Assembly (NCBI GenBank): GCA_038727135.1
Contig: JAVYWL010000001.1
Coordinates: 64,001 to 128,000 of the forward strand
Direction: 5' to 3'
Source of the DNA: Candidatus Bathyarchaeia archaeon
GTDB lineage: Archaea > Thermoproteota > Bathyarchaeia > Bathyarchaeales > Bathycorpusculaceae
Length of the DNA stretch: 64,000 bases
Shown: piece after piece, positions 2,849 to 35,309 of the stretch
Layout of the letters: the number at the start of each line of letters is the position of its first letter
Numbering within the stretch: the first letter of the stretch is position 1
The notes under the pieces: model-generated
The model's input: only the letters and a program-made list of their open reading frames with translations
The model's database searches: none
Told to the model about the DNA's origin: nothing
Position numbers and translations under genes: made by a program

Positions 2849-3925
2849 TTACCTTGTTACTTCAGCCTTTCTCACAACTTCTAGGCTTTCTCTAGCCTCT
2901 TTGTCTGTTTCGAAGTAGCGTCTTATGGGTTCCAATATACGGGCTAGTTCTTTGGCTACTGCATTTTTCAAGTCCTGCGGGTGAAGTTGCCCGGTTCTGT
3001 AGGCTTTTTCTAATTGTTCGTAGTTTTCGAAGGTTATTGTGCCGCCATATTTTGATGGGCGTTCGACCGTGAAGGCTTTTGCTTCATGGAATATTACGTA
3101 TTTGACTATTTCTAGGACTGGGTTCATTTCCGTCTGCTTTTCCGGGCACCATGCCCTCTTCAGTTTAGCTCTTATCTGTTCTTCGTTGTCGTGGATGAAT
3201 ATGGCTGTCCAGGGCTTGGACTTGCTCATTTTGCTGGCAATCACCTGCTCCAGCTTATCCTTTGTTTCGAGTTTGGCTGGCTCTGCTATACCCATGAGCA
3301 GGTGGTGGTGCAAAGCCACCGGCTTTTTCCACCCCATTTTTGGAAAGATTTCGCGGGCAAGCACGTGGGCTTTGCGTTGATCCATCCCGCCGTGGGGTAT
3401 GTCTGCGCCTATGGTTTTTATGTCGACGGCCTGCATTGGCGGATAGAAATACTGCGACAAGTCTAGCCTTTCGGTTTCGCTTCGACCCATTATTGTTAGG
3501 CAGCGAAGTGTTCGGCTTAGTGTCATGTGCTTTGCAAACTTTAGCAGGTTTCGCCAATACTCATCATTATTGTGGTAGAGTTCTGAGCCGACGACAATTT
3601 TTACGCCTGGGCAGAAGAATTGGAAGGCTTTAGCGTAGTATTTTGTGGCTTGGAGGATTTTGTCCCAGTCTCCGCCGAACTTGTTGTTTATGAAACTGTG
3701 CCAATCCGCCAGATAGACTTGACACCGGACGCCAGCCTTCAATAAATCGTTTATTTTGAAGCCTGAAATTACAAGGTTTCCAAGATGCAGCAAACCCGAA
3801 ATCTCAAAACCAATGTAGTGTCCAGGATGCTCATTTGTCTCTAAAAGTTCTCTTAACTCGCTTTCAACGAGAATTTCCTCTGTTGGCGGACGTTTAATGA
3901 GTTCTATTTTTGTTTCTATGTCCAA
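2849..3925 (-). CDS. tyrS: Tyrosine--tRNA ligase
   Basis: YIGFEISG, HLGN (HIGH), YPPMQAVD, GGMDQRK, KMSKS. TTG 3925 preferred because a BRE/TATA-like element lies at ~3963-3976. Confidence 0.93.
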   Translation of the reverse strand: MDIETKIELIKRPPTEEILVESELRELLETNEHPGHYIGFEISGLLHLGNLVISGFKINDLLKAGVRCQVYLADWHSFINNKFGGDWDKILQATKYYAKAFQFFCPGVKIVVGSELYHNNDEYWRNLLKFAKHMTLSRTLRCLTIMGRSETERLDLSQYFYPPMQAVDIKTIGADIPHGGMDQRKAHVLAREIFPKMGWKKPVALHHHLLMGIAEPAKLETKDKLEQVIASKMSKSKPWTAIFIHDNEEQIRAKLKRAWCPEKQTEMNPVLEIVKYVIFHEAKAFTVERPSKYGGTITFENYEQLEKAYRTGQLHPQDLKNAVAKELARILEPIRRYFETDKEARESLEVVRKAEVTR

Positions 3926-3975
3926 GACTGTCAAGCCTTTTACAAATAAGCGGAACTGCAACTTAAAAGTTGTTT

Positions 3976-4240
3976 CGCGGGCGCTTTTGTTTCCCACGTT
4001 ACCTATCACTTAACTTCATCGTGGAGCCTTTCGCTCCCCTTGGTTAAGCTCTCTCCGGCGTGGGAATTTTGGAGCGCCCGCGCCCGCCGGTGTCCCATGC
4101 TTGGGTAAACCCGCCTTCACAGCAACAAGCGTTTTGTGGGCTTGCTGCTCTGTTGGGTCCGTCGGCATGGATTTATCCCGGCGGGATTTCAAGAAGGCTC
4201 GCTTGGGAGAGTGTTCATCGCCAAAGGAGGTTAAAGCCTC
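3976..4240 (-). ncRNA. Candidate structured non-coding RNA of unknown family (~265 nt)
   Basis: GC-rich intergenic block with several 6-10 bp helices; mismatches resolve as G-U on the minus strand; TATA-like TTTTAAA at 4262-4268 upstream. Confidence 0.6.
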
Positions 4241-4366
4241 TTTTAGAATTAAATGTTGCTGTTTAAAAGCGAGTCATATTTGTTGATGTTTTTAAGTTAC
4301 AAATACACCGCCCCTCTCTAGTTTTTGGCGATTGCGGTTAACCTTTTATGGTTGATTAGCCGTTAA

Positions 4367-4744
4367 TTGCATGTGTGTCGTAGGGTAGGTTGCGTTAGGG
4401 TTCGAGGTTTTATTGCTAACCCGTTAGACCGCAATTTGAAGGAGGAGTTGGAGTTTATTGTGGACACAGGCGCTATTTACACGGTTATTCCGAGAAGTGT
4501 TGCTGAAAAGCTTAAGTTGAAAGAGTTGGGTAGGCGAAAATTTAAGACCGCGAATGGAAGCATCGTAGAGTTTCCAGTTTCAGAGGCGTACATAACAATA
4601 GGTGGGGAAGGCGTAACATCACTTGTTGCCGTTGCGGATGAGGGCACACCCACCCTTTTGGGCGTGACAACCCTTGAACTTTTAGGGTTGCAGGTTGACC
4701 CGGTAAGCGGAAAACTTGTGCCGATGGAGCTAATGATTCTTTAA
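4367..4744 (+). CDS. Clan AA (retropepsin-like) aspartyl protease
   Basis: FIVDTGAIYT catalytic motif, LLGVTTLE C-terminal motif; start uncertain. Confidence 0.85.
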   Translation: MHVCRRVGCVRVRGFIANPLDRNLKEELEFIVDTGAIYTVIPRSVAEKLKLKELGRRKFKTANGSIVEFPVSEAYITIGGEGVTSLVAVADEGTPTLLGVTTLELLGLQVDPVSGKLVPMELMIL

Positions 4745-4926: not shown

Positions 4927-6612
4927 CTAAATTGGATACCCCTCTCTAGATTTTTTGGTTATAAGCCATTCGATGTCTATTTCTAGGGCTGCTGTTGGGT
5001 TTTCCAGTTCAAAGTTGTTTAGGACTTGTGGGTGGACTTCGCCTAGAACCCCAATTTGTTTATTTCCTATTTTGATGGCTGCGGTCCTGCCTTGCAAGAA
5101 GCTTGGATGTTTCGTCTCTTTTATTTGCCAGTTTGTTAAGCCTAAGTTGGCAAGGAGTGCTTCGCATGTGGATTTTATTTCTGTGTAGTTGGCTGTTGAG
5201 TGGCATGTTACCGCTGCCAAGTGTAAGCGTCTTTCACACATGGTTTCTTGGCGGCGGTTTATTTTTGCCACGTCTGAAACTTCAAAAAGCTTTTGCGGAT
5301 AGCTTTCATGCTTGTTTTCCGCCAGGTTCTTCAAAAGTCCTGGTAAGAGCATCTCCCTCATTATTGTGTATTCGGCTGACACTGGGTTTGCGAGGCGCAC
5401 CGGGTTTTCTGGTTTAAGTCTCATAAGCTCGTAGTGGACGCGTTCATTTGTTAGGGTGAAGTTCATAACTTCCAAGAAGCCTAAACCGGTCATTATTTGG
5501 CGTACGGTGTCTGCCAACTTATTTACTGGGTGCTTTTCGCCAACAGTCACGGTGGGGGGTATTGTTGGTTCTAGGCGGTAGTAGCCGTAGCCTATGGCGA
5601 CCTCCTCGACGAGGTCTATTTCATGCATTATGTCAATGCGGTAGGGTGGAATGGCAACTTCCAAAACGCCCTTTTCAATGGTTTCCGCGTCCAATCGACA
5701 CTTTTGCAGGCATTTTATGGCTTCAGCCTCTGAAAGTCTTAAGCCCAACATTCGGTTGGCGTAGCTCAGCCTAAGCCTCATCTTTTCTGGTTCAAGATTC
5801 GGCGAAACCACCGTGCGGTCTGGATAATGCACAATAACCTTTTCAAGTTTGCCGCCCATGTCGGCTAGGGCGGTCGCCAAAACTTTTAGGCCTTTCTCCA
5901 CAGCCTCAAAATTTGGTCCAGTAACATCCAAAAAGAGATTGCGTGTATTGGCGTCTACTCTTGTAAGTTCACCGTTTATTATTGGCGGCATTGACAAAAC
6001 TTGCCCGTGCCTATCGATTAGCAGTGGATATTTTGGCGACCAGTCGATTAGGTGGCGGTAAGCCACGCCCTTCTCATGTTTTTCAAGAATCTCTTTGGGT
6101 GTCATCTCCTCTGTTTTGCCAAGGGGGACAAATTTGACGCTTGTTGGTTCCACAGCGGTATAGATGAAGGGCGGCTCAACAACGTCCAAGTTGTGGATGC
6201 CGATAGAAGCCTTTTTACGGTCTCTGCCAACCCCCCAGTGGAGGTCTTCCTGCATATCCATTAGCTCAACAACAGCGCCTTCATCCAGCTTTACATCTCG
6301 AACTATGGCGGCAAGCATGTATGGCCTAACAGTGGCAACGGCGCCGTCCACTCTAAGTGTTGTTTTGGGCTCTTCCGCATGGTATTTTGGCATTCCAGTC
6401 TCCAGTTCCAAGAAGCCTTTTAATGCGCGGGCCACACCAGCATAGCTGCAGAAGTCTATGCGGTTTGGGTTATACTCAGCCTTTACATGGTCTTCGCCAA
6501 TTTCTTCCAAGTCGAAGCCTATCCATGGAAGCCACTTTGTCAGGTCTTCAACGGTCACGGGCTTGCCTAAAAACCTTGAAAAACGTTCCACATTAAGCGT
6601 TATCACTGGCAT
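4927..6612 (-). CDS. pheT: Phenylalanine--tRNA ligase beta subunit
   Basis: NPNRID, QEDLH..GRDRKKASIGIH, PPYRIDIMHEIDLVEEVAIGYG; overlaps the end of pheS. Confidence 0.95.
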   Translation of the reverse strand: MPVITLNVERFSRFLGKPVTVEDLTKWLPWIGFDLEEIGEDHVKAEYNPNRIDFCSYAGVARALKGFLELETGMPKYHAEEPKTTLRVDGAVATVRPYMLAAIVRDVKLDEGAVVELMDMQEDLHWGVGRDRKKASIGIHNLDVVEPPFIYTAVEPTSVKFVPLGKTEEMTPKEILEKHEKGVAYRHLIDWSPKYPLLIDRHGQVLSMPPIINGELTRVDANTRNLFLDVTGPNFEAVEKGLKVLATALADMGGKLEKVIVHYPDRTVVSPNLEPEKMRLRLSYANRMLGLRLSEAEAIKCLQKCRLDAETIEKGVLEVAIPPYRIDIMHEIDLVEEVAIGYGYYRLEPTIPPTVTVGEKHPVNKLADTVRQIMTGLGFLEVMNFTLTNERVHYELMRLKPENPVRLANPVSAEYTIMREMLLPGLLKNLAENKHESYPQKLFEVSDVAKINRRQETMCERRLHLAAVTCHSTANYTEIKSTCEALLANLGLTNWQIKETKHPSFLQGRTAAIKIGNKQIGVLGEVHPQVLNNFELENPTAALEIDIEWLITKKSREGYPI

Positions 6613-15649: not shown

Positions 15650-15726
15650 ATCCAAAGGAAACCCAACCGCACATAATACTGCCAATTTAAACCTTAAAAC
15701 AGTATAGCCCTTCAAAAGGAGTGGGG

Positions 15727-15843
15727 CTGCCAGCTTTCCCGGCTTCGCGTGGCCGAAGACCACACTACAACCGGGAACGGAGCGCGGTTTAACTTCCGAG
15801 TTCGGAATGGGATCGGGTGGAACCCGCGCCCTATGGCCGGCAA
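15727..15843 (-). rRNA. rrf: 5S rRNA, unlinked from 16S/23S
   Basis: GCCGGCCATAG...CCCGATCCCATTCCGAACTCGGAAGTTAAACC...GGGAAAGCTGGCA with complementary ends. Confidence 0.95.
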
Positions 15844-15999
15844 ACCCCAAAATACACCGTAAACCATTGCTCATTAACTTTTCGCTCACTCCGGACATTT
15901 TAAAAAGATTTTCACAGATAGTCAGTAATTACTGGCCAAAACGGCAAGTTTTTAGAGCAAAATCAATTACCTAGAAATCAAATTATAGAGGCTGTAATT

Positions 16000-35135: not shown

Positions 35136-35309
35136 GGGGCCGTAGTCTAGGCAGGTATGACGACGGGCTCCAGAACATTACCAAACGGGTTTGCGGACCG
35201 CTATGCGGAATGAAGAGGTTCTGGAGCGGTCGGTAGAGAAACCCGTAGAAGCAGCCTCTGAGGCTGTTTCGGGGAGAGGTCGTCGGTTCAAATCCGGCCG
35301 GCCCCACCA
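35136..35309 (+). tRNA. tRNA-Trp(CCA) with two introns (35174-35240 at 37/38; ~35247-35276 at ~43/44)
   Basis: Acceptor GGGGCCG/CGGCCCC-ACCA, anticodon arm ACGGG-CTCCAG^A-CCCGT, T arm GTCGGTTCAAATCCGGC. Confidence 0.9.

Follow-up and report, generated by a model that had tools for sequence, protein, structure and literature searches.

The DNA analysed here, referred to as the window, is a stretch of 64,000 nucleotides (nt) from a Candidatus Bathyarchaeia archaeon (assembly GCA_038727135.1, contig JAVYWL010000001.1, positions 64,001 to 128,000), and the genome it belongs to (G000) amounts to 1.55 Mb in 7 contigs. On the minus strand of the window, the tyrosyl-tRNA synthetase (TyrRS) gene tyrS is preceded by a conserved two-hairpin core at 3976-4185 and, upstream of the core, by a conserved kink-loop (K-loop) hairpin at 4196-4222. 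Further upstream, on the opposite strand, follow an open reading frame (ORF) for a retropepsin-like aspartyl protease and then pheT. A preliminary description of the locus had proposed a structured non-coding RNA on the minus strand, perhaps an independent transcript, with box-C-like motifs. Our results agree with this, and the motifs are of the kink-turn (K-turn) type. We conclude with good confidence that the structured RNA upstream of tyrS (3976-4185) is a double-hairpin box H/ACA pseudouridylation guide small RNA (sRNA).

For 3960-4260, the folding energy of the minus strand is -116.3 kcal/mol (z = -6.0), which 0 of 100 shuffled sequences equalled, and the plus strand reaches z = -4.3. The helices listed in the preliminary description are real, as all eight are fully paired in the minus-strand RNA. 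Two of the helices are weaker on the plus strand (9/10 and 6/8 pairs), in agreement with its argument for this strand, that A-C mismatches on the plus strand become G-U pairs on the minus strand. Conservation of the structure was assessed in two alignments of homologues: A1 with 38 sequences aligned by MAFFT, and A2 with 55 sequences which were fitted to a model and hence lean towards the structure. In A1, the nested structure pairs 93.1% of the cells and 33 of 58 pairs show compensatory changes; none of 500 shuffles reached this level, and slid controls gave 33-47%. The corresponding values in A2 are 94.0% of cells and 49 of 57 pairs. Five nested helices and an apical hairpin are conserved with covariation. 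The crossing or alternative pairings that had also been suggested (4051-4056/4206-4211, 4036-4043/4221-4228 and 4024-4030/4194-4200) do not stand out from shuffled 5' regions in the majority of the 38 homologues. These pairings involve a 5' region which varies between genera, and since they are not conserved, pseudoknots or switching conformers are unsupported. A flanking helix of the minimum-energy fold (CUUGAAA/UUUUAAG) was rejected as well, because it is lost in homologues, whose 5' flanks differ, and for the conserved 3' flank a promoter is the simpler explanation.

The RNA is widespread in the class. With blastn, the element was found in 44 of 61 related genomes, and outside the genus conservation is limited to about positions 60-300 of the 3960-4260 query. 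A pattern made of the invariant blocks occurs in at least 119 stretches of one-genome-per-species contigs; among the 80 matches listed, 79 are titled Bathyarchaeota, Bathyarchaeia, Bathyarchaeum or Bathyarchaeales and one Xanthobacter, where a hand estimate gives about 1 expected chance match. The covariance model R1 matches 131 of 151 sampled Bathyarchaeia genomes (85/95 of the high-quality ones), and in a sample of the phylum, other classes included, it matches 56/151. The counts by family range from full or nearly full presence (f44 13/15, f45 8/8, f50 4/4 and f56 3/3) to none (f42 and f47, 0/13 each). Outside the class, the matches are mostly single units of 80-200 nt, i.e., single-hairpin relatives. 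The element is single-copy in the genome and hence not a miniature inverted-repeat transposable element, a possibility that had been raised initially.

In three genomes (G022, G030 and G034), the sRNA gene appears to be the attachment site of an integrated element of about 4.8 kb (loci L048, L046 and L047, respectively). In L048 (G022:C84:1-5800), full-length sRNA copies lie at 254-492 (141 bits) and 3987-4235 (152 bits) and a partial copy at 5141-5280. This partial copy and the start of a 338-amino-acid (aa) tyrosine integrase ORF (Phage_integrase, 54.9 bits) overlap, and no Pfam match was obtained for the remaining ORFs of the element. What looks like a split gene in these genomes is several copies around an integrated element.

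The two hairpins have the same build, which comprises, starting at the base, a GC-rich basal helix (P1a in hairpin 1, P2a in hairpin 2), an internal loop with ACA, an inner stem of 6-7 base pairs (bp), a large internal loop, an upper stem, a K-turn-type motif and an apical hairpin (Table 1). The lower stem, the large internal loop (the pocket) and the upper stem of an H/ACA unit are present in both, and all helices covary. The strands of the large loops are near-invariant, with CCGACGG and UUACCCAAG in hairpin 1 and GAGAGAG and UG(A/U)UAGG in hairpin 2. ACA stands 3' of the inner stem of both hairpins in 55/55 sequences, where it sits in an internal loop and not in a 3' tail. In hairpin 1, the distance from the upper stem to ACA is 15 nt in 51 of the 55 sequences, 14 nt in two and 16 nt in two. 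For H/ACA RNAs, this spacing is given as 14-15 nt in one report (PMC2377435) and as 15 +/- 1 nt in another (PMC7075261). At the sequence level, the K-turns lie in the upper stems with their non-canonical stems facing the pocket, and their signatures comprise an invariant UGA on both bulged strands with GA or A opposite. The two CGAUGAA motifs pointed out in the preliminary description are real and form bulged strands of K-turn-type motifs. Hairpin 1 has GA (4149-4150) opposite UGU-GA, and hairpin 2 has A-G opposite GAU-GA with a second sheared pair (position 2n) that varies. A third K-turn-type element, GGC-GAU-GA...GA-GCC, is conserved upstream of the core.

Table 1. Features of the sRNA gene and of the adjoining tyrS gene in the window.
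Feature	Position	Strand	Remarks
TATA-like CTTTTAAA	4262..4269	-	Candidate promoter of the sRNA precursor, proposed from sequence only; same CTTTTAA motif as before tyrS
K-loop hairpin K0, GGC-GAU-GA ... GA-GCC, leader 5' of the core	4196..4222	-	GCGAUGA at least 90% conserved in A1; GGC/GCC stem covaries, 3/3 pairs in A2
P1a 5' strand (CCCGCCGG), basal clamp of hairpin 1	4178..4185	-	Pairs with 4083-4090; compensatory changes in 4/7 pairs; 4185 is the 5' side of head-to-tail joints
Hairpin 1, H/ACA-type unit	4091..4171	-	Covariation; GACGGA, UGA, UACCCA and ACA invariant
Hairpin 1, inner stem, loop strands and upper stem	Inner stem 4166..4171/4094..4099; CCGACGG 4159..4165; UUACCCAAG 4100..4108; upper stem ACCC/GGGU	-	
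Hairpin 1, K-turn, apical stem and ACA	GA 4149..4150; UGUGA 4117..4121; apical stem 4121..4148; ACA 4091..4093	-	
P1a 3' strand (CCGGCGGG)	4083..4090	-	P2a 5' strand directly next, no spacer
P2a 5' strand (CGCGGGCGC), basal clamp of hairpin 2	4074..4082	-	Pairs with 3976-3984; compensatory changes in 6/9 pairs
Hairpin 2, H/ACA-type unit	3988..4065	-	Covariation; GAGAGAG and G.G.UAG conserved
Hairpin 2, inner stem, loop strands and upper stem	Inner stem 4059..4065/3992..3998; CCGGAGAGAG 4049..4058; UGAUAGGUAA 3999..4008; upper stem 4043..4048/4009..4014	-	
Hairpin 2, K-turn strand, apical hairpin and ACA	CGAUGA 4016..4021; apical hairpin 4023..4037; ACA 3988..3990	-	
P2a 3' strand (GCGCCCGCG)	3976..3984	-	Covariation; A at 3975 forms the 3' end of the long head-to-tail joint
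CTTTTAAG, TATA-like element for tyrS	3962..3969	-	Right after the sRNA; conserved as AACUUUUAAGU 3' of the RNA in many homologues; putative function
tyrS (class Ib aminoacyl-tRNA synthetase)	2849..3934	-	Pfam tRNA-synt_1b, 142.6 bits; neighbour, outside the RNA; in-frame TTG starts at 3934 and 3925

The extra basal helices P1a and P2a close both units, which leaves both ACA boxes in internal loops, and they abut without a spacer. Classic single-hairpin archaeal H/ACA sRNAs (Pab91, Pf9, and sR115 and sR435 of S. islandicus) share the lower stem, the pocket, the K-turn upper stem, the ACA and a spacing of roughly n+15 with the RNA described here. However, their ACA lies in a free 3' tail, while the Bathyarchaeia ACA makes up the 3' strand of an internal loop, which a further helix of 8-9 bp closes. 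In our judgement the RNA is probably a lineage-wide H/ACA variant with enclosed ACA boxes.

Comparison with Rfam 15 gave weak similarity to H/ACA RNAs among the homologues. The locus itself has no match at the gathering scores, in line with the preliminary description, and none at E <= 10. Archaeal H/ACA families are few in Rfam, and the absence of this RNA is a gap in the catalogue. Among the homologues, the only non-tRNA family matched at E <= 1 is HgcG/Pab40 (RF00064), which is an H/ACA family. Matches to HgcG were obtained for 2 of 20 out-of-class loci (L211, 30.3 bits at model positions 199-268; L209, 26.5 bits), and at the position of the RNA for 2 of 20 Bathyarchaeia loci (L197, 27.3 bits; L208, 25.1 bits), where the only other match is a tRNA. 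In genome G278, the L211 locus has the form of a textbook H/ACA hairpin, and its loop tops are the same (...AAGAG, UGUUAG). The HgcG positions it matches are those of the third hairpin unit of Pab40 ("motif 3"). Helix 69 has two conserved pseudouridines, and this unit is described as the guide for one of them, U2016 of P. abyssi 23S rRNA (PMC2377435). HgcG (Pab40/Pf7/Afu4) is a three-hairpin H/ACA sRNA of Thermococcales and Archaeoglobus, and its motif 3, published as the guide for a helix 69 pseudouridine (PMC2377435), has both the CGAUGA K-turn strand and loop tops of the form ...AG-(upper stem)-GUGUUA... in common with our RNA. HgcG differs in having three hairpins instead of two, in its 5' loop strand (GGGUUAG, in contrast to GAGAGAG here) and in the absence of basal clamps. 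The nested structure, the anatomy, the ACA spacing and the weak Rfam similarity thus place the RNA among the box H/ACA guide RNAs, and the earlier suggestion of a new class of archaeal non-coding RNA is not upheld. A literature search gave no paper linking Bathyarchaeota to H/ACA RNAs, though "H/ACA" is poorly matched as a search term and the result is unreliable.

The sRNA most likely directs pseudouridine formation in 23S rRNA, a role predicted from its loop sequences. A precursor with the K-loop leader at its 5' end would give rise to the double-hairpin sRNA, in which the K-turn of each hairpin would serve as binding site for L7Ae and the inner stem together with the ACA box as binding site for Cbf5-Nop10-Gar1. 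The strands of the internal loop would pair with 23S rRNA on both sides of a uridine, which Cbf5 would convert to pseudouridine. The three proteins searched for, Cbf5 (445 bits), Nop10 (87.8 bits) and Gar1 (37.2 bits), are all encoded in the same genome. The Cbf5 match (G000:C2:127401-128378, L253) contains one TAA within the matched frame, which could be due to an intron or to a match that overruns the end of the gene. A Cbf5 intron has been described in some Crenarchaeota (PMC3326292).

Complementarity to rRNA was examined in the full 16S and 23S sequences of 3 Bathyarchaeia and 4 out-of-class genomes. For the hairpin 1 blocks GACGG and ACCCA, a single Watson-Crick site exists in 16S and 23S of 7/7 genomes, and this is always 23S UGGGU UUAGA CCGUC; of 2000 shuffles of the G005 rRNAs, 53 gave any site. 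The hairpin 2 blocks GAGAGAG and GUUAC pair with helix 69 only (GUAAC UCUGA CUCUCUC) in three of the seven genomes, and any site was found in 2 of 2000 shuffles. These are the three genomes in which helix 69 ends in C; the other four have U for C at the last position, or a different guide. Hairpin 1 is therefore predicted to target the UGGGU-UUAGA-CCGUC segment of the 23S peptidyl-transferase centre, at the U equivalent to H. volcanii U2605 or at its 5' neighbour, and hairpin 2 is predicted to target GUAAC-UCUGA-CUCUCUC of helix 69, at the loop uridines or at the first U of the 3' strand. We take the E. coli equivalents to be 2586/2585 for the hairpin 1 site and 1915/1917/1921 for helix 69. 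Both predictions can be tested, and they concern 23S modifications that are central to function in a class of archaea that is uncultivated.

Under a strict geometry with 2 nt between the arms, helix 69 (CUGAC UC UCUU/C) is the top rRNA match for the guides of G278 (6+5 bp; CUGAC UC UCUUA) and G052 (5+7 bp) and reaches 9 bp in G203 and G246. With the guides of G005 and G021, whose loops are GAUAG, it fails, and strict 2-nt scans for hairpin 2 targets gave no match consistent across G005, G021 and G052. A genome-wide target scan in which G-U pairs were allowed was uninformative, with 46 hairpin 1 matches and 1143 hairpin 2 matches that do not exceed chance level. In G000 itself, both rRNA genes are cut off by contig ends; C2 starts with 16S model positions 752-1467, and the last part of C1 carries 23S positions 16-1686.

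The two predicted sites are those of a known haloarchaeal guide. In Haloferax volcanii, the 5' hairpin (SL1) of sR-h45 is reported to guide Psi2605 in a UUUA context, and the 3' hairpin (SL2) is reported to guide Psi1940 and Psi1942 of helix 69 with an unpaired "UNUN" configuration (PMC7075261). Judged by its complementarity, the Bathyarchaeia RNA is directed at both of these regions, with the hairpins in the same order from 5' to 3'. By its published description, sR-h45 also has two H/ACA hairpins, of which the 5' one faces the UUUA segment of the peptidyl-transferase centre and the 3' one the helix 69 loop with more than two target nucleotides unpaired, and about 8 positions separate the pocket from the sheared G-A pairs (PMC7075261). 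However, the hairpins of sR-h45 are described as separated by a linker of 56 nt and an AUA resembling an H box, while the Bathyarchaeia hairpins abut and each has an extra basal helix. The combination of a helix 69 guide with a peptidyl-transferase-centre guide in one RNA, known from haloarchaea, would then be much older or have arisen more than once.

Many genomes of the phylum have a 23S gene that is interrupted right after GACUCUC of helix 69 (L236 of G231, L237 of G062, L238 of G204 and L246 of G135). The interruptions are rRNA-intron-like, range from 26 nt (G135) to several hundred nt, and are inserted at a point inside the predicted hairpin 2 target.

Parts of the stretch are contained in 20 public sequencing runs, mostly hot-spring metagenomes, of which three are recorded as RNA-Seq. 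X17 and X19 are RNA runs of one study, represented by assembled contigs from relatives at >=85% likeness, and X20 gave a single contig. In the X17 and X19 contigs, the summed depth is about 590-2900 over 3970-4185 and falls to 0-3 in the bins on either side and to 0-27 over tyrS. The sRNA is thus abundant in these RNA libraries, and if it acts as proposed, it is a strongly expressed guide RNA that is present class-wide in a single copy and that the covariance model recovers in most genomes of the class. The lack of coverage of the K-loop leader in the RNA contigs is uninformative, as the relatives diverge there.

The same contigs contain joints that go backwards along the RNA, from 4174 to 3988 in X17 and from 4185 to 3975 in X19. 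Five sequence variants of the junction were seen, in all of which the 3' part of hairpin 2 is joined to the start of P1a; one runs through the 3' strand of P2a plus one A, and the others join at ACA plus 0-2 nt. The leader K0 is absent from these head-to-tail forms. The DNA-like run X14 covers the whole stretch and has no backward joint. The head-to-tail junctions are the signature of a circular RNA, and the sRNA may have a circular form, perhaps as its main form. Other possible sources of such joints are head-to-tail transcripts and template switching of the reverse transcriptase. Because the 3' strand of P1a and the 5' strand of P2a are contiguous, the two ends of the RNA anneal side by side, like a nicked duplex. 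Ends placed next to each other on a continuous complementary strand might then be ligated into a rod-shaped circle. The circular fold keeps the same structure, with -101.3 kcal/mol and z = -9.0. Inspection by eye of the sequence at the two junction sites revealed no bulge-helix-bulge (BHB) splicing motif.

A circular H/ACA RNA has a reported precedent in sR109 of Sulfolobus solfataricus (PMC3326292). The circular archaeal guides, i.e., C/D box sRNAs and sR109, are alike in being guide sRNAs with a covalently joined 5'-3' junction that was recognized from RNA sequencing (PMC3326292), while the junction here comes from assembled contigs. Unlike our RNA, sR109 is described as an atypical H/ACA RNA of 70 nt without a lower stem or ACA (PMC11077068). 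The Bathyarchaeia circle would hold two complete ACA-bearing units, joined via a self-templating duplex of 17 bp.

The fullest account of these data that we can offer, which is possible but held tentatively, is that the RNA is a covalently closed, rod-shaped guide for helix 69 and the peptidyl-transferase centre in Bathyarchaeia. Its two H/ACA units would point outwards from the central 17-bp P1a/P2a duplex; the duplex would template the ligation of its own ends, the ACA boxes would act from internal loops, the K-loop leader of the precursor would be removed, and the gene would be a reused attachment site for integrase-bearing elements. If the clamped, circular architecture is true, Cbf5 can use ACA boxes that are buried in internal loops. 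It would also mean a self-templating route to circular guide RNAs, which is of interest for RNA stability in thermophiles.

Several observations weigh against a guide of this kind. The ACA of hairpin 2 lies 16-18 nt from the closing G-U pair, and the distance becomes 14-16 nt only if two purine-purine pairs extend the upper stem (55 sequences). To our knowledge, an ACA enclosed in an internal loop is not a documented mode of Cbf5 binding. No homologue reaches the HgcG gathering score (best 30.3 vs 77 bits), and the copy in the window has no HgcG match at E <= 10. At both predicted targets, minimal pairing leaves 5 rRNA nucleotides between the arms, compared with the canonical 2. In the genus of the window, the hairpin 2 loop is GAUAGGUAA, which gives A-A mismatches in both helix 69 registers, and no compensating change was seen in the rRNA. 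The guide and target blocks are invariant, and covariation between them amounts to one consistent case, guide A with rRNA U (G278) vs guide G with rRNA C (G005 and G021). The evidence for circularity consists of assembled contigs from two runs of one study and from relatives at the likeness given above, and contigs cannot prove ends. Finally, under the strict 2-nt geometry the best match of hairpin 1 is 23S helix 71 (GGGUAAG UU CCGACG) in 3/3 Bathyarchaeia genomes. Helix 71 is now only a secondary possibility as the hairpin 1 target, because family f45 keeps the guide though its helix 71 loop differs, and the out-of-class guides UUAACCC mismatch helix 71. In family f45 (L232 of G246 and L238 of G204), the 23S helix 71 loop is GGAUGAUAUCC or GGAUGACAUCC as compared with the otherwise constant GGGUAAGUUCC.

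The alternative that survives best, though we consider it unlikely, is a new structural RNA which binds L7Ae without being a guide, such as a scaffold or chaperone in ribosome assembly, with the purine-rich loops as protein-binding motifs. By sequence inspection, the hairpin 2 strands GAGAGAG and UG(A/U)UAGG could close the loop by pairing with each other, with G-U and sheared G-A pairs and a single A-U pair, and the non-canonical target pairings with their 5-nt gap, the three K-turn-type motifs and the lack of an Rfam family at threshold would also fit such an RNA. However, the invariant ACA of hairpin 1 stands exactly 15 nt from the upper stem, and the sub-threshold Rfam matches all fall on one H/ACA family. 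Both loops are complementary to the two rRNA sites described for sR-h45 (PMC7075261), and a canonical H/ACA hairpin of another class (L211) has the same loop sequences.

A regulatory leader of tyrS was among the original proposals. As a leader, the RNA would act in cis, be co-transcribed with the synthetase mRNA and sense tRNA or TyrRS. The TyrRS gene adjoins the RNA in 44 of 60 loci, corresponding to 40 of 56 distinct genomes, where it lies directly downstream and several families are represented, and the gap between the RNA and the start of tyrS is only about 40 nt. In contrast, the RNA occurs without an adjoining tyrS in the remaining 16/56 genomes, and the linkage is conserved but not obligatory. 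A TATA-like element separates the RNA from tyrS, the depth of the RNA contigs is hundreds to thousands over the element vs 0-27 on the tyrS side, neither a T-box nor any other leader family of Rfam is matched at the locus, and homologous hairpins of other classes stand alone. A leader function is consequently very unlikely. The start of tyrS is likely the TTG at 3934 or at 3925, preceded by the TATA-like element. The ORF 2849-4009, which begins with GTG at 4009, overlaps the RNA, and removing this false 5' extension of tyrS corrects the annotation.

A highly diverged catalytic RNA of the RNase P/MRP type, along the lines of the preliminary suggestion, would fit only a loose motif resemblance (GCUUA, purine-rich joints) and the K-turns, which archaeal RNase P RNAs also have. 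This reading is for practical purposes refuted, as a canonical RNaseP_arch RNA lies elsewhere in the genome (G000:C1:446444-446750, 209.5 bits), GCUUAAC pairs locally and with covariation with GUUAAG so that there is no long-range P4-type helix, and neither RNaseP_arch nor RNaseP-T gave a match at the locus at E <= 10. Archaeal signal recognition particle (SRP) RNA was rejected as well, since the locus has no Archaea_SRP match and a canonical SRP RNA lies on contig C3 (172.9 bits).

Some further features were observed in the window. The retropepsin-like ORF (4367-4744, plus strand; 125 aa; gag-asp_proteas, 47 bits) is divergent from the sRNA and kept beside it in several genomes of the same genus. 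Downstream of tyrS, two adjacent minus-strand ORFs (1161-2315 and 2426-2842) have one Toprim domain each (34 and 30 bits). A stand-alone 5S rRNA gene is located at 15725-15844 on the minus strand (78.3 bits). On the plus strand, a tRNA gene of 171 nt (35136-35306, 38.9 bits) contains a 71-nt insertion in the anticodon loop and an insertion of about 30 nt near the variable region, which are probably two introns.

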